Assembly: GCA_964359975.1 (NCBI GenBank)
Contig: CAYHWZ010000001.1
Location: forward strand, 1 to 24,409
Reading direction: 5' to 3'
DNA: 24,409 nt
Origin: an uncultured Elusimicrobia bacterium
GTDB lineage: Bacteria > Elusimicrobiota > Elusimicrobia > 2-02-FULL-39-32
The position numbers and the translations under genes were made by a program. Position 1 is the stretch's first letter. Every line of letters starts with the position of its first letter. Positions 2,789-24,409 of the stretch are shown here, one piece after another. The notes beneath the pieces are model-generated. The model ran no database searches. It worked only from the letters and a program-made list of their open reading frames with translations, and was not told where the DNA came from.

Positions 2789-3619
2789 ATGATGCTAGTT
2801 AAAATATTACTTATAGCAATTTGCATTCAAGTCATACAAAGCACAGATTTAGTTATTCTTGCTTTTGATAATAGACCAGCCAAAAACCTATCTAAAGACA
2901 AAGAAGATGAAGTAGGCCAAAAGGAATTTGAGCAAATGAAAAAGAATAAACCCAAAGATTATCAGCAACTTGTCATGTCAATACAAGCTGTCCTTGGCAG
3001 ACTTGGTTATGGAACCGGTCCGTTTACAGGGATTATGGATGAAAAAACCAGAACAGCCATACAGAAGTATCAATCAAATGCTGGCTTAAAGCAATCCGAA
3101 GATTTGGATTATTTAACATTTAAGAAACTTATGGATGACATGGAAGCAACGGAAGCCCTCCCTGTTGGCCTTCCTTCTCTGTCCGTTTATGTTGATATGT
3201 GGAATGATTTTGCATCGGCTCAAGGTACATGGGTTATATCAAATGAAAAACAAGCTTTCCCATTGCAAACAACTAAGATAACTTGTTATCGTGAATCTAA
3301 CTCTTGCATTGAAACAACCGCAGTGATCATGCTTGGGAAGTCTCTAACTCTCGACTCTAATTTTATAGGTGTTGAAAGATGGGATAATTTTGAAATTGTT
3401 ACAAAACCGTATGATTATCTGTGTACACGTTATGTTATTCGAATTAATAAAGCTCAAAAAACCGTGACGGCAATACGATCCACTTTAAATTCAAAAGAGG
3501 TTTGCGAGGGCGTGGAAGGCAAGGAAATGCATCTCACATTAAGTGACGGATTTAAGGTCTGGTGGGAATTAGAGGAAACGCGAAGGGCAGTTATGAAAAA
3601 GGTGCTGCTGATTGATTAA
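2789..3619 (+). CDS. Secreted protein with a peptidoglycan-binding (PG_binding_1-like) domain and an unknown Cys-containing C-terminal domain
   Basis: Hydrophobic N-terminus; IQAVLGRLGYGTGPFTGIMDEKTRTAIQKYQSNAGL matches the PG-binding consensus; RBS GGGAGG. Confidence 0.8.
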   Translation: MMLVKILLIAICIQVIQSTDLVILAFDNRPAKNLSKDKEDEVGQKEFEQMKKNKPKDYQQLVMSIQAVLGRLGYGTGPFTGIMDEKTRTAIQKYQSNAGLKQSEDLDYLTFKKLMDDMEATEALPVGLPSLSVYVDMWNDFASAQGTWVISNEKQAFPLQTTKITCYRESNSCIETTAVIMLGKSLTLDSNFIGVERWDNFEIVTKPYDYLCTRYVIRINKAQKTVTAIRSTLNSKEVCEGVEGKEMHLTLSDGFKVWWELEETRRAVMKKVLLID

Positions 3620-14342: not shown

Positions 14343-15812
14343 ATGTCATACGACCTTATTGTAAAAAACGGGACTATCTACACGGCGAGTGAAACTTTTA
14401 CCGGCAATATAGCGGTGAAAGGCGGCAAAATTGCGGCGCTCGGTATGGACATTCCCGCCGACGGTGCCCGCGTCATTGACGCCAAAGGGCTCCAGATTAT
14501 TCCGGGCAGTATTGACGTGCATGTGCATTGCCAGCTCCCGTTCTGCGGCACTGTTTCGTCGGACGATTTTTATACCGGGACCAAGGCCGCGGCTTGCGGC
14601 GGCGTGACCACCATCATGGACTTTGCAGGTCAAGGACCGCACGACAATCTCATGGCCGGCGTCGAAGCCCGCATTGCCGAAGCTGAACCCAAAGTCGTCA
14701 TTGACTATTCGCTCCATACTATGGTCACCGGATTCAAAAAAATCAAAGACCCGGTCAAAGAGTTCCGGCGTATGCTTGATTTCGGCGTGGCCAGCCACAA
14801 AATGTTCATGATCTACGAACGCGAAGGATGGCAGGCCATGGACGACGATATCTTCGGAGCCATGCTCGCGGCGCAGGAAACCGGCGCCACTATCTGCATG
14901 CACGCGGAATCGGAAAAGGTGATGAACTTTCTCGTCGGATACTATCTTGCGCGCAAGGATAAAGTCGGCGCCTACGGGCATGTGCTCTCGCGGCCCAACT
15001 TTATCGAGGAAGAAGCTATCCAGCGCGCTATCAAGTGGGCCGAAGCCACCGGCGCGCATCTTTATGTGGTGCATATGTCCACTGCAGGCGGAGCACAGCT
15101 TTTCAAAGATGCGCAGGCCAAAGGTCTGAACGTCCATGTGGAAACCTGCCCGCAGTATCTTGTGATGAACGACGATGTTTTCAAAGATAAAAAGAGCGGT
15201 CACTGGTTCGCCACTTGTCCGCAGATTAAAAAGAAAGCGGATAACGACCGGCTCTGGCAGGGTCTCATCGACGGTGAAGTGGCCGTGGTGTCCACGGACA
15301 CCTGCACATTCACCATCAAACAGAAAGCCATGTGGAATGGCGATTTCACCCGTATCCCGTTCGGTATGCCCGGCGTGGAGACGCTCATGCCGTCCATCTA
15401 CACGTTCGGATACAAGCAGAACAAATTCTCGCTCAATCACATGGTCTCGATTCTTTCAACGAATCCGGCCAAACTCATGGGCATGTACCCGAAAAAGGGA
15501 ACCATTGCCGTGGGGTCCGACGCGGACTTTGCCGTTATTGACCCGAACGCGAGCCGCAAAATCGATTACAAAGAGCTCGCGTCCAACTGCGACTGGTCGC
15601 CGTTCCAGGGATGGAAAATGTTCGGGTTCCCCAAATATACCGTGAGCCGCGGCGAAGTGCTCGTGTCCAACGGCAAGTTCGACGAAAAAGTCGGACGCAA
15701 AGGGCGCGGTCAATTCGTCAAGCGCAAACCCTACGGATGGCGCGACCTTGCCCGCCCCTGGTACGTGCCCGAACACAAGTCTCAGGTCGTGGACAAGGTT
15801 TTGGTAAAGTGA
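14343..15812 (+). CDS. hydA: Dihydropyrimidinase / D-hydantoinase
   Basis: PGSIDVHVH, GTKAAACGGVTTIMDF, HKMFM (carbamylated Lys), HAES, SRPNFIEEEA, VVHMS, ETCPQYL, STD, GMPGVET, NPAKLMG.YPKKGTIAVGSDAD; RBS GAGGAG. Confidence 0.9.
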   Translation: MSYDLIVKNGTIYTASETFTGNIAVKGGKIAALGMDIPADGARVIDAKGLQIIPGSIDVHVHCQLPFCGTVSSDDFYTGTKAAACGGVTTIMDFAGQGPHDNLMAGVEARIAEAEPKVVIDYSLHTMVTGFKKIKDPVKEFRRMLDFGVASHKMFMIYEREGWQAMDDDIFGAMLAAQETGATICMHAESEKVMNFLVGYYLARKDKVGAYGHVLSRPNFIEEEAIQRAIKWAEATGAHLYVVHMSTAGGAQLFKDAQAKGLNVHVETCPQYLVMNDDVFKDKKSGHWFATCPQIKKKADNDRLWQGLIDGEVAVVSTDTCTFTIKQKAMWNGDFTRIPFGMPGVETLMPSIYTFGYKQNKFSLNHMVSILSTNPAKLMGMYPKKGTIAVGSDADFAVIDPNASRKIDYKELASNCDWSPFQGWKMFGFPKYTVSRGEVLVSNGKFDEKVGRKGRGQFVKRKPYGWRDLARPWYVPEHKSQVVDKVLVK

Positions 15813-18300: not shown

Positions 18301-18969
18301 ATGGATTTAACTAACTTCTACTATTTTTATTCAACCATTGCTCAAGTATTCGCGGCCATATTGGGAGTCATTGGCTTATTTGCGGTTTTTCTCATCGAAA
18401 ATATAAGAAGCAGGATTAACACAGACACAGATAAACTGTGGTACATTTTGGGGGATTTTGGAATATTTCCCGATGAAATGCCAAAATATAGGTTTGATGA
18501 GAAGCGGAAAGCGGAAGCCCGAAAGCTATTTCCTTACACTACTGAGTCGCTTTTAGCAAAACGAGCGGAATTAGAAAGAATGATTGATAACTGTCAAAAA
18601 GATATTGAAAAGCAGGAAATGGAATTACGACAAAAACAAGAACAAAACCAAAACTTTAATATGCAGAGCGGGACTATAAATATAGATGATGCAAAAAAGA
18701 CGAAATTTGAACGCGAATCGTTGCTACAGCAAATATGTGTTCTTGAATCTTTGATAGAGAAGGAGAGGACGATAGTAGATAGATTAGGAACGCCAACATA
18801 TTTTGTGGGCTTAATAATTGTACTCGCGCTTTGCGGGATTTTTGTCCTGCCTTGGATGCAAATATTCCCAGCCGTACTTTGGTGGTTAGCGGGGACGGTG
18901 CATTGTCTGTCAGTTATTGCTATTTTTGTTGTTATATACAAGGTGATTAGTTGGGTAAGAATGAAATAG
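18301..18969 (+). CDS. Hypothetical membrane protein (N-terminal TM, coiled coil, two C-terminal TMs)
   Basis: AT-rich 222-aa ORF; hydrophobic segments at both ends around an E/K/Q-rich heptad region. Confidence 0.75.
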   Translation: MDLTNFYYFYSTIAQVFAAILGVIGLFAVFLIENIRSRINTDTDKLWYILGDFGIFPDEMPKYRFDEKRKAEARKLFPYTTESLLAKRAELERMIDNCQKDIEKQEMELRQKQEQNQNFNMQSGTINIDDAKKTKFERESLLQQICVLESLIEKERTIVDRLGTPTYFVGLIIVLALCGIFVLPWMQIFPAVLWWLAGTVHCLSVIAIFVVIYKVISWVRMK

Positions 18970-19066: not shown

Positions 19067-19471
19067 TTAAAAGGGTGTGGTATGGAACCCGGCAGATTTA
19101 AAATGTCGGTCGAAGGTGAAAACTCTCTTTATTTTGTGTCTGTGCATCAGGACAAAGGAAATACAATCTGTAAAGCTGATTTTTTGATCCGCATACTTTT
19201 TGAATAGGTTCACTGCCTCTAACTCTTCCTTCTGGTCCGGTCTCAATATTTCCATTTCTTGCGAGCAGAGAATGTTTCTGGCGCGGTCTGCGGCGAACGC
19301 ATAACCGGTTCTCCTTGCCAGCAGGGTAAAGAATTCGTCCAAGACAAAATTGCTCGTGATGCATTGTTCCCTGCTCTTGTAAAACTTGTCCCATAAATCC
19401 GACGCAGTTTTGTGATACTGGTCGTGATCAATGTACCGGGCAAGAAATGGTCCGGTATCAATAAAAATCAT
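19067..19471 (-). CDS. vapC: PIN-domain (VapC-type) toxin
   Basis: MIFIDTG, TSNFVLDEF, SFTDCISF, VFTFDRHF (PIN acidic residues); start at 19471, ATGA overlap with the antitoxin stop. Confidence 0.9.
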   Translation of the reverse strand: MIFIDTGPFLARYIDHDQYHKTASDLWDKFYKSREQCITSNFVLDEFFTLLARRTGYAFAADRARNILCSQEMEILRPDQKEELEAVNLFKKYADQKISFTDCISFVLMHRHKIKRVFTFDRHFKSAGFHTTPF

Positions 19472-19710
19472 CCGGCATCCCCGTAAAGATATTCGTCGTG
19501 CTTTTTTGACAAGTCTCGCGGGGCAGGTCCCTTGAAAACCACGGTGTCCGCCCAAAATGAGTCGGATTTTGATGATTTGGAAGGAATGTCCTTGAGACCT
19601 CTGTCCAGCGATTCCCGAATCAGCTGTCCGAGGGACTGGCTGTGAGCGTGAGCATGTTGCAGCGCCCTCATTTTAAGTTCGTCCGGCAGCATTATAGTTG
19701 TTCTAATCAT
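19468..19710 (-). CDS. CopG/RHH-type antitoxin (VapB-type)
   Basis: MIRTTIMLPDELK...SLGQLIRESLD...DLSKKHDEYLYG; RBS GGAGG; coupled to the PIN gene. Confidence 0.85.
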   Translation of the reverse strand: MIRTTIMLPDELKMRALQHAHAHSQSLGQLIRESLDRGLKDIPSKSSKSDSFWADTVVFKGPAPRDLSKKHDEYLYGDAG

Positions 19711-19732
19711 GAGTAAGACCTCCGATACCACC

Positions 19733-19799
19733 ATAATGACATATGCATAACCTAGCGTCAAGCCCCAGACTTGACATTATGTCCCAATAAGTGTAGAAT
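19733..19799. promoter_or_regulatory. Back-to-back divergent sigma70-type promoters (vapBC leftward, SLT operon rightward)
   Basis: Minus: TTGACG (19756-19761)-17-CATTAT (19733-19738). Plus: TTGACA (19771-19776)-17-TAGAAT (19794-19799). Confidence 0.7.
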
Positions 19800-19839: not shown

Positions 19840-19930
19840 CACTGACAAAGGTATCCCTCGAGAGATCGGGGCGCACACGCAAAACTTAGGGTCCGCCGGG
19901 GAAGGCAGGACAGCCGGGTTGCCAGAGAAT
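19840..19930 (+). ncRNA. c-di-GMP-I (GEMM-I)-like riboswitch aptamer, atypical 5' half
   Basis: GCAAAAC-TTAGG-GTCC-GCC(GGGGAA)GGC-A-GGAC-AGCC-GGGT-TGCC matches the GEMM-I P3/junction pattern; P2 has a GNRA loop (TC-GAGA-GA); lies in a ~180-nt leader between promoter and ATG. Confidence 0.7.
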
Positions 19931-19955
19931 CACATTATGGCGGCCCGGATTTTTT
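19914..19955 (+). terminator. Intrinsic terminator overlapping the aptamer 3' end (expression platform)
   Basis: CCGGGTTGCCA (19914-19924) pairs with TGGCGGCCCGG (19938-19948), 11 bp with two G-U, followed by ATTTTTT. Confidence 0.75.
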
Positions 19956-19985
19956 ATGTCCCCGCCCAAATAAAAGGAGCCCGAA

Positions 19986-20699
19986 ATGACTGCACGAAAG
20001 AAATTGACCGAAGTGGATAGAATGCTGAAACAGCAAACCCCTCACAAAATGAAAGCCCTTGAGAACGCATCCAGGCATTTTGATAAGTTTGATAAAATAA
20101 CCGTAAATACACTTGAGGCCATTTACGGACAGGAAAGCAGTTTCGGTACGAATCGTGGAGTACGAGGAATAGTCGGAGCCGCAGGTGACTTTCAATTGGA
20201 GAGGAAAACTGCCATCCGGTATGGCCTGATTGTCACCCCCAAAAATGACCAGCGTTTTGACGTGGACAACGCATCAGACGCATCTGCCAGATATTTGAAA
20301 GATCTGGACAGATATTTCTCGAAAGCGACCCGTCTTATAGGACAGATTCGCACTGTTCCAATAGATGATTCGGACGAAAGATTGAAGTTCGTAATAGCAT
20401 CATTCAATGCCGGAGAGGGGAGAATTGCGCGCGCACAGGACGTAGCGAAAAAGATGGGCAAGAATCCAGAAGTGTGGGATGATGTCAGAAAATATCTTTC
20501 AAAAGCGGGTGCAACCGCAGAAAAAGTCAAGGAAATTAAGGACTATGTGGAAAAGGTGCAGCAATATGAGAAGGAATTTGCCTTGAAGTCGAAAGCAGAC
20601 AAAAGTGTCAAACATAAAGATCCAATAAAACTTAAGCAGAGTTCGGAAATCGGAGAGTGGATTACCAAGGATGAACGGCCTGTATTCATAGGGAGATAA
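19986..20699 (+). CDS. Lytic transglycosylase (SLT domain, MltF-like motifs), no signal peptide
   Basis: QESSF (catalytic Glu50), AAGDFQL, ASFNAGEG, KDYVEKV; charged N-terminus; RBS AAGGAG. Confidence 0.85.
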   Translation: MTARKKLTEVDRMLKQQTPHKMKALENASRHFDKFDKITVNTLEAIYGQESSFGTNRGVRGIVGAAGDFQLERKTAIRYGLIVTPKNDQRFDVDNASDASARYLKDLDRYFSKATRLIGQIRTVPIDDSDERLKFVIASFNAGEGRIARAQDVAKKMGKNPEVWDDVRKYLSKAGATAEKVKEIKDYVEKVQQYEKEFALKSKADKSVKHKDPIKLKQSSEIGEWITKDERPVFIGR

Positions 20700-20703
20700 T
20701 CCA

Positions 20704-22053
20704 ATGAAGATGCTTATTCTCCACTTGGTGACCGTGCTTTTTGTCATTACGGGATATCCCGGCGCCGGTCAAGAACCGGAATCAGATTCCTGCACACAGC
20801 AGTATTTCAAACTGGATGCAGAATATTTGGGATGCTTGAAATCGGATCCGATTGCAGGATTTATCCGACAAAGTTTTGACGACTTCTTGAAGGGAAAAAA
20901 ATGCGAAAACTGTTCCACGCTGTGGGATCGCGCTGAAAAGTTCCGCTCCATTCTCTCCAACAAAATCATGCTGCTGGAGGTCTGGGAAGGTCATTTCGGC
21001 GGGTGGTTTGTGATGATTGCCGTGGACGCTCCGAAAATGCGCTTTCTGGAACTGTGGGTTTATGAGATTGATGAAAAAGAATACCAAATCAGGCACCTGG
21101 AAGAAATGACCCTGAAACAGGAGGAGGTATTTCAGCTTCAGAAGTTGAGAGAGGAACCGTACCCGCGGTTCTGGTTGAAAAGCGGGGCAAAACGCGCGTC
21201 AATCGACCCGCAGATTAATGACGCCGGAAACCCGGACGATTTTCCAGTACATTCGGAATCTGACGGATACAGGTTCCGGGTGGATACGGCATCGTCCGCA
21301 TCGGCTGCGTTTTTCAAATCTCTGGACGATATTTTCAGCAAAGAAACAGATCTCGGTATCAAATTCAGATCCTATCCGGTACTGGACCAGGAGGAACGGA
21401 TAAAGTTCAGTTTGGGGGCATTTAACGCGGGCGAAGCCAGAATCGCAAGCGCTCAACTGCGGACCTTAAAACTGAACGAAGACCCGTCCGTCTGGGAAGA
21501 AGTCAAGGAGCGTCTGACTTTTTCCGGTGCAACGCCGGGCAGATCATTCCAAACCAGGAGCTTTGTAGACCGTATGTACCGACAGAGCAAAAGCCGCGCT
21601 GATTCCGCAGGTACACCCAAGGATCCGTCAGACGAGTCGGGGAGCTTCCGCCTGAATGCATCCTGTATGAACATGGATTTCAAACTGGATCAGGACTACC
21701 TGGCTTGTATGAGAGCGGATCCGATTGCAGATTTCTTGCGACGGAGTTTCAACGAATACTTGAAGTGCAGCCCGAGCCAGGAGTGCGCGCCTTTGCTCAA
21801 ATACGCGGACAAGTACCGGATACTGCTGTCGGGAAAGTTCATGATCCTTGAAATCAGAGAAAGAGACGAAGACGGGTTCACAGCGGTGATCGTGTTTCCT
21901 GATCCTGAAGTGCGGTTCTTAAGACTATGGGTTTATAATCTGGATGAGAACGAGTACGAGCTCCGTCATATCGAAGAGTTGTTTGCCATTCCCGGACATC
22001 GTGCGAATCTCAAACGCCTGACAAAGAATAAATTTAAGCAGTTTCTCTTGTGA
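20704..22053 (+). CDS. Secreted protein with two copies of an unknown domain flanking a truncated, non-catalytic SLT fragment
   Basis: Hydrophobic signal (aa 1-22); aa 29-134 vs 320-425 are 49/106 identical, ungapped; aa 190-291 vs SLT aa 90-191 are 44/102 identical, ungapped. Confidence 0.85.
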   Translation: MKMLILHLVTVLFVITGYPGAGQEPESDSCTQQYFKLDAEYLGCLKSDPIAGFIRQSFDDFLKGKKCENCSTLWDRAEKFRSILSNKIMLLEVWEGHFGGWFVMIAVDAPKMRFLELWVYEIDEKEYQIRHLEEMTLKQEEVFQLQKLREEPYPRFWLKSGAKRASIDPQINDAGNPDDFPVHSESDGYRFRVDTASSASAAFFKSLDDIFSKETDLGIKFRSYPVLDQEERIKFSLGAFNAGEARIASAQLRTLKLNEDPSVWEEVKERLTFSGATPGRSFQTRSFVDRMYRQSKSRADSAGTPKDPSDESGSFRLNASCMNMDFKLDQDYLACMRADPIADFLRRSFNEYLKCSPSQECAPLLKYADKYRILLSGKFMILEIRERDEDGFTAVIVFPDPEVRFLRLWVYNLDENEYELRHIEELFAIPGHRANLKRLTKNKFKQFLL

Positions 22054-24409
22054 CTACTGGTAAGTGAGTATCAAATCCCCGGCGGAGATTTTGTCGCCGG
22101 GCGCAACGAGCACGGTACCCACCACGCCGGGGCGGGGAGCTGTCACGGAGGTTTCCATCTTCATGGCTTCCAGCAAAAACAGTTTGTCGCCTTTCTGCAC
22201 GGTGTCGCCGGGTTTCACCAGTACGTCCACTACACTGCCGGGCATCGTCGCGCCCACATGGTGCAGGTTTTCCGGTTCGGCTTTCGGGCGCTTCGGGAGT
22301 ACTGCCGCTTTCCCCTTGTCCTGCACTTTGATGTCGCGCGGACTGCCGTTCAATTCAAAAAATAGTGTTTTCATCCCGGTCGTGTCCGTCTCAGACACGG
22401 CAGACAACTTGATGTAAAGGGTTTTGCCTTCCTCCAGCTCCACCGCTATTTCCTCGCCCGGCTGCATGCCGAAAAAGAACGCAAGTGTGGGCAGCACCGA
22501 CGTGTCCCCGTATTCTTTGCGGTGGTTCAAAAATTCCATCGCGGATTGCGGCGCCATAATATAGGAGAGCACGTCGGTTTCGGAAATCTTCACCGGCGAT
22601 TTTTTGCGGTTGTGGTTCAGTTTCTTGTCGAGCTCGTCCTGCACCCGTTCGAACACGATACTGCGTCCCTGACGCGACCGTTTCGGAGCATGGTCGCCAA
22701 GCACCAGTTTCTGCAGTTGTTTGGGAAATCCGCCGGGCGGGAATCCCAGGTCGCCGTTCATCATGCCCACCACGCTCGCGGGAAACGACAGCGACGCGGC
22801 TTTTTCATAGAAATTGTTCTCGTCCAGTCCGTTCGCCGTGATGAACAGCGCCATATCGCCCACCACCTTCGACGAAGGCGTCACTTTGATAATATCGCCG
22901 AAAAGTTTGTTGGCCAGCGCATAGGCCTTGATAACTTCGCGCCATTTCGCGCCCAGTCCCATGGCCTGCGCCTGCTCAAACAAATTCGTGTACTGTCCGC
23001 CGGGCATTTCGTGGAAATAAACTTCCGCAGAACTGCTCTTTAACCCCGACTCAAACGGCGCGTAGTAACGCCGCACGTCATCCCAGTAACGCGAGTAGTC
23101 GTTCAATACGGACAGGTTCAGTCCCGTGGAGCGTTCGTGAAATTCCAGCATGGCGGTCAGACTGTTCAGGTTCACCTGCGACATGATGCCGCTCATCGAC
23201 GCCAGCGCCGCGTCCACAATGTCGACGTCCGCTTCAATCGCAGTCAGCAGTGTTGCGGCCTGGATGCCTGTGGTGTCGTGCGTGTGGAGATGGATGGGGA
23301 GTCCGGTCTCTTGTTTCAGTGTCTTGACAAGCAATCGCGCGGAAAACGGGCGCAAGAGTCCGGCCATGTCCTTGATGCCGAGGATATGCGCGCCGGCTTT
23401 TTCAAATTCTTTTGCAAGTTTCACGTAATATTTGAGAGAGTACTTGTTCCGTTTCGGGTCCTCGATATTGCCCGTGTAGCAGAGGGCGGGTTCGGCGATT
23501 TTGCCGCATTTCAATACAGCGTCCATGGCCGGGCGCACGTTCCGCACTATATTGAACGAGTCGAATATGCGGAATATGTCCATCCCCGTATCTGCCGCAG
23601 TCTTCACAAAATGCTGCACGACTTTGTCCGGATAGCTGGCGTACCCCACGGCGTTGGACCCGCGCAGAAGGAGCTGGAGCAATGCGTTGGGCATGGCTTT
23701 GCGCAGGACTGCGAGCCGCGACCACGGGTCTTCGTTCAGAAATTTCAGAGACGCGTCGAACGTGGCTCCGCCCCACATTTCGTACGAAAATATGCCCGGC
23801 TCGTCGCGCACCATTTGCCGTGCGGATTGCGCCATGTCAAAAGTGCGCACTCGCGTGGCTAATAGCGACTGGTGCGCGTCGCGGAATGTGGTGTCTGTCA
23901 CCAGCACGCGGTTCTGCTTTTTTATCCATTCGACCAGTCCGTCCGGGCCTTTTTCTTCAAGAATCTGTTTGGTGCCGTGCGGCATTATTTCAAAGGGTTC
24001 TTCCTTCTGGGGCGCTGCAGCGCTCATCGGTACCGGACGGGTCTTGCCTTTTACCGTCGGGTGTCCATTGACGGTGACTTCAGCGATATATTGCAGGAGT
24101 TTAGAGGCGCGGTCCTGGCTCTCCGTGGTGATTTTCAGTTCCGGATGGCGCAGCAGAAAGTCAGTGCGGAAATCTGCCTGCCGGAACTCGCTGTTGCGCA
24201 GTACAGCGCGCAGGAAATTGATGTTCGTCTTTACCCCTCGGATGCGGAACTCTGCCAATGCCCGGTCCATCCGGTCCGCGGCCTCTTCTAAATCGCGTCC
24301 GTAAGTGGTGAGTTTCACAAGGAGCGAATCGTAGTATGGCGTAATCACCGCTCCAGCATGCGCGCTCCCCGCGTCCAGCCGTACTCCATGTCCTGCGGAT
24401 GAACGGTAA
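22054..24409 (-). CDS. pyc: Pyruvate carboxylase (5' part outside the window)
   Basis: Frame open to the window edge (YRSSAGHGVRLDAG...ITPYYDSLLVK); DTTFRDAHQSLLATR, EMWGGATFD, HLHTHDT, HEMPGGQYTNL, KVTPSSKVVGD, biotinyl EAMKM. Confidence 0.97.
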   Translation of the reverse strand, partial: YRSSAGHGVRLDAGSAHAGAVITPYYDSLLVKLTTYGRDLEEAADRMDRALAEFRIRGVKTNINFLRAVLRNSEFRQADFRTDFLLRHPELKITTESQDRASKLLQYIAEVTVNGHPTVKGKTRPVPMSAAAPQKEEPFEIMPHGTKQILEEKGPDGLVEWIKKQNRVLVTDTTFRDAHQSLLATRVRTFDMAQSARQMVRDEPGIFSYEMWGGATFDASLKFLNEDPWSRLAVLRKAMPNALLQLLLRGSNAVGYASYPDKVVQHFVKTAADTGMDIFRIFDSFNIVRNVRPAMDAVLKCGKIAEPALCYTGNIEDPKRNKYSLKYYVKLAKEFEKAGAHILGIKDMAGLLRPFSARLLVKTLKQETGLPIHLHTHDTTGIQAATLLTAIEADVDIVDAALASMSGIMSQVNLNSLTAMLEFHERSTGLNLSVLNDYSRYWDDVRRYYAPFESGLKSSSAEVYFHEMPGGQYTNLFEQAQAMGLGAKWREVIKAYALANKLFGDIIKVTPSSKVVGDMALFITANGLDENNFYEKAASLSFPASVVGMMNGDLGFPPGGFPKQLQKLVLGDHAPKRSRQGRSIVFERVQDELDKKLNHNRKKSPVKISETDVLSYIMAPQSAMEFLNHRKEYGDTSVLPTLAFFFGMQPGEEIAVELEEGKTLYIKLSAVSETDTTGMKTLFFELNGSPRDIKVQDKGKAAVLPKRPKAEPENLHHVGATMPGSVVDVLVKPGDTVQKGDKLFLLEAMKMETSVTAPRPGVVGTVLVAPGDKISAGDLILTYQ

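Follow-up and report, generated by a model that had tools for sequence, protein, structure and literature searches.

How does a wall-cutting enzyme that carries no export signal come to be encoded directly in front of a secreted protein that holds a dead half-copy of the same enzyme, and what might the two do together? This question is raised by two adjacent genes in a stretch of 24,409 nucleotides from an uncultured Elusimicrobia bacterium (GenBank assembly GCA_964359975.1, contig CAYHWZ010000001.1, positions 1 to 24,409; hereafter, the window), which belongs to a metagenome-assembled genome (MAG; G000) of 2.6 Mb that is 86.6% complete. Gene 1 (19986-20699, protein P0001) encodes a lytic transglycosylase of the SLT family, and gene 2 (20704-22053, protein P0002), spaced 4 nt from it on the same, forward strand, encodes its putative partner. 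The comparison of this locus with its relatives in other genomes suggests that the two genes represent a mobile cassette composed of a wall-cutting enzyme and a periplasmic, immunity- or inhibitor-like partner, a functional reading that is favoured here with the arguments for and against it standing about level.

A signal-less lytic transglycosylase

The product of gene 1 is a signal-less SLT of 237 aa that consists of an MltF-type catalytic domain only. It matches the Pfam family SLT (PF01464) with 42.8 bits against a cut-off of 21.3 (expectation value, E, 4.6e-11), and among solved and named proteins its closest relative is the MltF catalytic domain. Specifically, the match is restricted to positions 300-415 of the 483 of the MltF profile, and the profile comparison found no MltF-type N-terminal substrate-binding-protein-like domain in the 237 residues of P0001. 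The catalytic pair E50-S51 lies within the peptide YGQESSFG and is at least 90% conserved among 40 homologues, while the SFNAGEGRI motif, of the AYNAG type, contributes three residues (N141, G143, and G145) that are invariant in the same set. The start of the gene is fixed by the position of the ribosome-binding site read from the sequence (AAGGAG, 19974-19979), 6 nt before the ATG. The N-terminus is hydrophilic and lysine-rich, the most hydrophobic 12-residue window within the first 45 aa scores -0.13, and no Sec signal or lipobox of the kind found in housekeeping transglycosylases is present in P0001. All this agrees with the initial annotation of the locus, made from the sequence alone, which had described gene 1 as an SLT with a catalytic glutamate and no signal peptide.

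Beyond the SLT fold, and after a lysine-rich linker, residues 223-237 of P0001 and the C-termini of all homologues (alignment A4) share the conserved motif GHW(I/V)TxDGR(H/P)(I/V)FI, which is absent from both dead half-copies described below. This motif could be a strand that docks onto the partner, or a tag for export or packaging; a language-model search with GHWITxDGRxIFI returned nothing usable.

A secreted partner that contains half of the enzyme

Gene 2 encodes a secreted protein of 449 aa with four parts. The first is a Sec-type signal peptide of about 22 residues (20704-20769, Kyte-Doolittle hydrophobicity 2.98), followed by a domain here named X (X1, 20710-21180 with the signal region), which matches the X profile with E 2e-45 and for which an NTF2/cystatin-like fold is predicted. 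Next comes a C-terminal lobe of the SLT (21256-21630, family positions about 84-214) that lacks the catalytic Glu-Ser and GxxQ regions and is thus termed the dead half-SLT, and, lastly, a second copy of X (X2, 21643-22050, X profile positions 21-157). Residues 190-308 of P0002 align with residues 90-213 of the enzyme at 41% identity over 124 aa (E 1e-26), and an ungapped stretch of 102 aa within this region has 44 residues identical to gene 1 (43.1%). X1 and X2 share 46% identity over 107 aa (E 1e-37), with C7, C21, and C47 invariant between them. Since the profile match of X2 begins at position 21, X2 itself lacks a signal peptide and can be exported only within the fusion. The order signal peptide, X, dead half-SLT, X, the ungapped 43% identity, the 46% and the three cysteines had all been proposed beforehand, and they proved exact to the residue.

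The same annotation had named a chimeric assembly among the findings that would undo it. Logan unitigs of the sequencing run X1, a groundwater sample, cover the window at 20630-21145, 21123-21532, 21572-22004, and 21975-22364 with zero differences; because the second and third of these agree with the window throughout, both junctions of the dead half are bridged, and an assembly chimera is ruled out. With its junctions bridged and the signal peptide of X2 lost, the gene 2 fusion is real. A separate ENA assembly (L010), at a coverage of 2.1x, has the same gene order up to a pyruvate carboxylase gene and is 98.75% identical. It carries 19 small, frame-breaking deletions at L010:721-935 and 1296-1348 (window 21187-21390 and 21785-21810), that is, in the linker of gene 2 and the start of the half-SLT, and in X2; outside these clusters, seven base differences over 2.8 kb leave it 99.8% identical to the window. 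As the rest differs at these seven bases only, the gaps are read as errors due to low coverage, which is the probable explanation, a decaying allele being a possible one.

A widespread cassette with two types of partner

P0001 has at least 434 homologues at E 0.001 or better, and the best 120 of them are all 224-268 aa long and 52-63% identical to it. A scan of one genome per prokaryote species yielded 73 SLT loci in at least eight named lineages, all of them in MAGs: the hosts include Omnitrophota (many, with as many as three loci in one genome), Bdellovibrionota/Oligoflexia, uncultured Planctomycetia, Rickettsiales, Parachlamydiaceae, Marinamargulisbacteria, and others. These loci were profiled with hidden Markov models for SLT, for X, and for a second type of partner, here named Y. 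Directly after the full-length SLT gene comes X, Y, or a Y-X fusion in 53 of 58 cases (X in 23, Y in 27, and the fusion in 3-5); among the remaining genes, three are followed by another signal-bearing protein and two have an X-like gene upstream instead. A lack of linkage between X homologues and SLT genes, which had been put forward as a possible refutation, is therefore not what the loci display.

In its commonest form, X is a small protein on its own, as had been anticipated. At two loci (L001 and L002), a single-X protein of 155 aa with a signal peptide is encoded 3 nt downstream of the SLT, and an exhaustive profile search with X1 and X2 retrieved 79 cluster representatives, nearly all of which are single-X proteins of 140-170 aa. 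The start codon of X lies 2-12 nt past the stop codon of the SLT. Y, with about 170 aa (FGNMTY...YGDFNxDGLxDAAV), is either a lipoprotein or a secreted protein, and its conserved MRL start is placed inside the last codons of the SLT; examples are L013:8702-9262 and L042:1089-1622, together with 25 other loci, while natural Y-X fusions occur at L035, L047, L050, L053, and L087. To judge from this spacing, enzyme and partner are translationally coupled. On the SLT tree the partner type is clustered, with 12 changes against 24.6 when the types are shuffled, and at least five switches between X and Y can be counted.

The two members of the pair differ sharply in their N-termini. A hydrophobic N-terminus is found in none of the 120 SLT homologues, whose top hydrophobicity in the first 45 aa is 1.2, vs 54 of 60 X proteins; moreover, X contains conserved pairs of cysteines. 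No twin-arginine motif was found in the signals of X and Y that were read, and the hypothesis that the SLT hitch-hikes on its partner through the twin-arginine route was discarded for this reason.

Partners also persist where the enzyme does not. N-terminal stumps of the SLT stand before an intact partner at L091, L095, and L096, a broken SLT lies beside an intact X at L101, and an orphan X (L102) is present on 14 contigs. The SLT is essentially never seen without a secreted partner, while the partners seem to outlast the enzyme, an asymmetry that fits the one expected of toxin and immunity genes. The pair appears to be a widespread, conserved cassette that was previously undescribed: literature searches retrieved no description of the SLT-partner pair, in keeping with the initial impression of a locus of an unfamiliar kind.

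The dead half-SLT and its origin

Is the dead half a remnant, or is it maintained? Of the 34 family positions with a conservation of at least 90%, the half-SLT retains 24 (71%), along with 14 of 26 moderately conserved positions and 5 of 42 variable ones (12%); the substitutions at conserved family sites are mostly conservative, and the frame is intact over about 125 codons. Because conserved sites are retained in an intact frame at such divergence, the pattern argues for purifying selection on the half-SLT as a folded C-lobe.

Regarding its source, the half-SLT shares about 40% identity with every member of the family, vs about 57% among full-length members in the same region. Gene 1 is only the eighth of 121 members by similarity to it, and on the tree the half forms a long branch of unresolved position (2.09 vs a median of 0.23). 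A recent local duplication of gene 1 was hence rejected as its source, the half being no closer to gene 1 than to other members. It follows that the duplicated and fused SLT-X unit postulated by the initial annotation stands as regards the fusion, with the lost signal peptide of X2 as its trace, and is not borne out as regards a recent duplication on the spot. A word-based homologue search with the full 449 aa of P0002 returned no matches.

A second protein of this type, P0130, is encoded at the locus L009 directly after a full SLT and is made of a signal peptide, a half-SLT, and X. Its half groups with the neighbouring SLT of L009 (support 85/85) and not with the half of the window; by this phylogenetic criterion, the fusion of a dead half-SLT to X is a recurrent event that arose at least twice, independently. 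In both proteins the half extends from family positions 79-84 to 209-211, and X is taken up again at profile position 20-21. At L091, L095, and L096, the stumps of the SLT stop at positions 81-90, which correspond to NDQRFD, the most conserved peptide of the family, so that the breakpoints of these three loci, of P0002, and of P0130 cluster at this peptide (family positions about 79-90). By analogy with the conserved motifs at which orphan modules arise in polymorphic toxin loci, NDQRFD may be a point of recombination; alternatively, only the fusions that occur at domain borders survive.

These data also bear on a simpler account of gene 2, namely that its architecture is the decaying by-product of duplication and deletion, in which only X1 matters while the half-SLT and X2 are relics. 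Degenerate tandem copies are indeed known in the family (L074, where SLT and X are followed by fragments of the SLT and of X, in this order, and L053, with a fragment of the SLT tail), and both the length of the half-SLT branch and the frame-breaking indels of L010 would suit such a decay. However, the frame of gene 2 is open over its 449 codons, retention in the half differs widely between conserved and variable positions, and an independent fusion has the same domain boundaries; the indels, which come from an assembly at 2.1x that is otherwise nearly identical, look like errors, and the groundwater unitigs are free of them. Decay is, on balance, an improbable explanation of gene 2.

Predicted folds of X and Y

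The model of X (AlphaFold, predicted local distance difference test, pLDDT, 93.3) has three helices packed against an antiparallel sheet of four strands and ends in two short helices. Its best structural match is a designed NTF2 protein, with a Z score of 8.3 that is within the range of chance arrangements. Weaker matches, at Z 5-6.4, are to VirB8-like proteins, TraM, and cystatins, and include Tai3, an immunity protein of type VI secretion systems (T6SS), at 5.2; the NTF2 domains of Pgp2 and Csd6 score 5.0-5.1. The modelled X is tentatively described as a generic NTF2/cystatin-like cone. A natural Y-X fusion was modelled with a pLDDT of 85.8, in which Y resembles a small beta domain built like two VCBS/FG-GAP blades.

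No Pfam, NCBIfam, PADLOC, or PHROG family matched X, Y, or the gene 2 partner, and PDB sequence profiles gave no match for X or Y. Two candidate identities were set aside: X as an inhibitor of the Ivy, MliC, or PliG type, for want of a fold match, and Y as a relative of PliI, a language-model look-alike that the folded model did not bear out.

Genomic context and mobility

The cassette stretch of the window is poor in guanine and cytosine (fraction 0.41-0.48 vs 0.52-0.56); it follows a VapBC pair and shares its contig with a Shedu nuclease. Around the 73 loci the neighbourhood is highly variable, with 506 open reading frames distributed over 430 clusters. Neighbours that recur are limited to AAA_14-DUF4143 ATPases (12 loci), Schlafen AlbA_2 proteins (7), YhcG nucleases (4), BrnT, MazF, and AbiEii. 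Individual copies are flanked by integrases, a tRNA gene, or PIN/Phd pairs, and in other genomes, too, the cassette is bordered by PIN/Phd, MazF, and BrnT pairs. A sample of 300 other genomes from the phylum of the window, two of the same family included, yielded no X; the best named matches of one housekeeping gene indicate that this phylum is probably Elusimicrobiota. On the evidence of distribution and neighbourhood, the cassette is horizontally mobile and resides in variable toxin-antitoxin and defence islands.

Mobility raises the question of whether phages are involved. Lambda R-type phage endolysins are transglycosylases that lack a signal, and weak PHROG matches to lytic tail proteins were obtained (1.4e-6), as would be expected if the two genes encoded the endolysin and an accessory protein of a lysis cassette from a phage or prophage. 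Yet 50,697 phage records, 72,556 plasmids, and 2.9 million IMG/VR contigs yielded no member of the family, on which ground a phage or plasmid origin was rejected, and the neighbours are not phage-like. Of the holin genes that the initial annotation had thought worth looking for, none lies near the cassette, and neither does a phage gene. A phage lysis cassette is consequently very improbable.

The company of Shedu, VapBC, MazF, BrnT, AbiEii, AAA_14-DUF4143, and Schlafen-type genes points instead to a possible module of a defence island, acting by abortive infection: the SLT would stay idle in the cytoplasm and lyse the wall when the inner membrane is breached, for instance by a phage, and the partner would mop up leaked enzyme. 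Such a module would need no secretion system and would agree with the sporadic and mobile occurrence of the cassette. Nevertheless, no PADLOC model matches any component of the cassette, no sensor component is evident, a periplasmic inhibitor would oppose the proposed lysis, and orphan partners make less sense in a module devoted to self-killing. Taken together, these points make a defence function improbable.

Some neighbouring genes deserve mention in their own right. Upstream of the cassette, on the minus strand and divergent from the SLT operon, positions 19067-19761 encode a VapC-type PIN toxin (PF01850, 4.2e-16) with a small antitoxin-like open reading frame upstream of it. This VapBC pair separates the SLT operon from the gene at 18301-18969 (plus strand), which lies in the part of the contig lowest in guanine and cytosine and encodes a protein of 222 aa with hydrophobic segments at both termini, a glutamate- and lysine-rich coiled-coil centre, and no Pfam family; it might conceivably have a holin-like or defence role. 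Another wall-related gene, also within an island of this contig, is found at 2789-3619 (plus strand), where a protein of 276 aa with a PG_binding_1 domain (4.8e-9) adjoins the Shedu gene (1516-2547). Lastly, one cassette of an uncultured Planctomycetia MAG has upstream of it a GyrB gene that is split by an intein with a LAGLIDADG endonuclease (L064:1887-5900).

The leader of the operon

The intergenic region in front of gene 1 contains the elements of a putative riboswitch. A sigma-70-like promoter, TTGACA-17-TAGAAT (19771-19799), matches 11 of 12 consensus positions and is proposed from this consensus match. It is followed by a candidate aptamer of the cyclic di-GMP (c-di-GMP-I, or GEMM-I) type at 19840-19927, which scores 32.9 bits against a cut-off of 35 with the Rfam model RF01051; the GGC variant model RF03167 gives 32.3 bits against a cut-off of 59. 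In the minimum-free-energy fold, a terminator hairpin with a U6 tract (19914-19955) forms by pairing of 19914-19924 with 19938-19948, so that the 3' strand of the aptamer is also the left arm of the terminator; the ATG of gene 1, at 19986, is downstream of promoter, aptamer, and terminator. All these elements are on the plus strand. Because the 3' strand of the aptamer pairs into the terminator, ligand binding should prevent termination: the ligand-bound aptamer would block the terminator and turn the operon on, which makes the leader a probable ON switch of the c-di-GMP class.

The MAG contains six c-di-GMP-I riboswitches above the Rfam cut-off and 14 GGDEF matches, and the aptamer of the window aligns with five of its same-genome paralogues over 24 invariant columns, save for a 4-nt insertion. 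The six clear riboswitches are located on contigs C158, C21, C193, C60, C396, and C137 (loci L015-L020) and, where an open reading frame is visible, precede genes for secreted or surface proteins. Two of the six carry an A in place of the usual G in front of the GCA of the first junction, a change that, read from the sequence, might signal cyclic GMP-AMP (cGAMP)-type specificity. In the window, a weak second c-di-GMP-I match (18 bits, E 0.5) at 15662-15756 on the plus strand, at the 3' end of an amidohydrolase gene (14343-15812), is most likely due to chance.

As a component of the cassette, the riboswitch was rejected, since it is absent from the five other cassettes examined. Of the riboswitch reported by the initial annotation, the plausibility of a sub-threshold aptamer with a terminator is retained, while its standing is that of a feature of this locus and not of the cassette.

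An ON switch of this kind would be at home in front of a regulated autolysin or a wall-remodelling pair that serves the cell itself, in biofilm lysis, in the release of extracellular DNA, or in building a surface structure, with the partner as a periplasmic regulator or targeting factor. Expression at high c-di-GMP, as suggested by aptamer and terminator, the six other riboswitches that also precede secreted-protein genes, and the existence of protein inhibitors of housekeeping transglycosylases (PMC10746161) speak for such a pair. Conversely, none of the 120 SLT homologues has an export signal; moreover, the cassette is absent from close relatives, it occurs in mobile islands and in several copies per genome, and elsewhere it comes without the riboswitch. 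An autolysin under c-di-GMP is therefore considered unlikely.

The favoured reading and its weight

What remains as the favoured reading is an enzyme with a protective periplasmic binder, which is preferred because the asymmetry between enzyme and partner, their split between compartments, and their translational coupling concur. The enzyme would be made in the cytoplasm without an export signal, and the partner, translationally coupled to it, would be exported by Sec, bind the SLT in the periplasm, and neutralise it as a putative immunity or inhibitor protein, to protect the wall of the carrier or of its kin. The SLT would get to the target peptidoglycan by a route outside the cassette, for instance through lysis, in vesicles, or by way of a transfer system that is so far unrecognised. 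That the catalytic domain of MltF can be held in check by a protein is established for IltA, which has the anti-inhibitor LiiA (PMC10746161). As to gene 2, the fusion presumably stems from an old, duplicated or captured SLT-X unit that lost the N-lobe, the stop codon, and the second signal peptide; the dead lobe probably does something in the periplasm, because it appears to be under purifying selection, and it may bind glycan or act as a built-in decoy for X.

Several observations weigh against this reading. No match to VipB, phage sheath, or VirB4 was found in the 86.6%-complete MAG, and no secretion gene recurs among the 506 neighbouring open reading frames of the 73 loci, so the T6SS or extracellular contractile injection system whose genes the initial annotation had considered is not in evidence. 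It is also unusual for a single well-conserved toxin family to be paired with two immunity families that are unrelated to each other. The predicted fold of X is generic (Z 8.3 or less) and that of Y is VCBS/FG-GAP-like, unlike those of the known lysozyme and transglycosylase inhibitors; in line with this, Ivy, MliC/PliC, PliI, PliG, and IltA were not among the matches of X and Y in Pfam, PDB sequence, Foldseek, or VIA-align comparisons. The aptamer is below its gathering threshold (genome-wide E 1.2e-4), and it was not found at the cassettes L001, L002, L009, L011, and L013. The functional reading is kept at even weight because no delivery route was found and binding is a prediction. The effector-immunity pair of the initial annotation is, as a specific form of it, a plausible candidate, sustained by the conserved, coupled pair and by the asymmetry seen at L091, L095, L096, L101, and L102, and weakened in that no delivery system was found.

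A bolder version can be formulated, to which little credence is given: the cassette might be a new wall-antagonism system of ultra-small and predatory uncultured bacteria that works with no known injection machine, in which C-lobes and partners are swapped at NDQRFD and dead C-lobes are kept as exported, inhibitor-tethered decoys or glycan anchors, here switched on by c-di-GMP. As part of the same conjecture, gene 2 would unite an inhibitor and an anti-inhibitor in one polypeptide.

If the favoured reading is true, a large and unannotated family of wall-lytic toxin/antidote cassettes exists, with the new partner folds X and Y, which have no Pfam family, in hosts that are hard to study (Omnitrophota, Bdellovibrionota, Elusimicrobiota, uncultured Planctomycetia, and Rickettsiales) and whose cell-wall attack and defence are largely unknown. 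It would raise the question of how a signal-less enzyme reaches peptidoglycan without a known secretion system, and the recurrent, selected fusion of a dead half would represent a natural reuse of a fragment of a catalytic domain as a regulator. Furthermore, X and Y might find use as proteins that specifically inhibit transglycosylases of the MltF type.

Comparison with known systems

Among the closest known systems, the cassette recalls the pairs Tse3-Tsi3 and Tge-Tgi of the T6SS and X-Tfe/X-Tfi of the X-type IV secretion system (X-T4SS), in which a signal-less, glycan-cleaving enzyme is likewise followed by a co-transcribed gene for a partner with a signal peptide or lipoprotein signal, and orphan partners and truncated enzyme remnants occur as well. 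In contrast with these pairs, neither a T6SS nor a T4SS was found in the MAG or at the 73 loci, the SLT has no PAAR, VgrG, MIX, or XVIPCD-type delivery domain, and X and Y are unrelated to Tsi, Tgi, and X-Tfi in fold searches, the closest approach being that of X to Tai3 at Z 5.2 only.

Bacteriocins provide a second parallel, since in the wall-targeting pairs pesticin-Pim and colicin M-Cmi a toxin without a signal goes with an exported, periplasmic immunity protein, and the genes are mobile. The cassette would share these traits; however, an SLT of 237 aa leaves no room for receptor-binding and translocation domains, and no lysis gene accompanies it.

Among the inhibitors of wall hydrolases, IltA/LiiA, Ivy (which acts on MltB), MliC/PliC, PliI, and PliG resemble the predicted partner in being periplasmic proteins that block an enzyme, here a domain of the MltF type, and the dead C-lobe tethered to X recalls the logic of inhibitor and anti-inhibitor seen in IltA/LiiA. 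Conversely, IltA, a Sel1-repeat protein, regulates a housekeeping enzyme that is exported (PMC10746161), whereas X is modelled as an NTF2/cystatin-like domain and Y as a VCBS-like beta domain.

The fusion itself is reminiscent of the orphan modules of cdiA-CT/cdiI and rhs-CT loci, where a 5'-truncated toxin with its own partner lies downstream of an intact pair and breakpoints fall at a conserved motif, here NDQRFD. Unlike in those loci, the whole SLT is conserved and is not a variable tip on a constant delivery stalk, and the orphan of gene 2 is fused in frame to partners on both sides. The leader, in turn, conforms to the RF01051 consensus in its two-hairpin aptamer and in a terminator that uses the 3' strand of the aptamer, and it departs from it in the score (32.9 vs 35 bits), in the 4-nt insertion, and in having AAAGGUAUCC in place of the usual AAAGGCAAACC, with c-di-GMP or cGAMP as the candidate ligand. 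Overall, the locus is assigned to a known kind, that of a wall hydrolase with a periplasmic immunity or inhibitor protein, to which it adds an unusual, recurrent, and apparently selected fusion with a dead half-enzyme.

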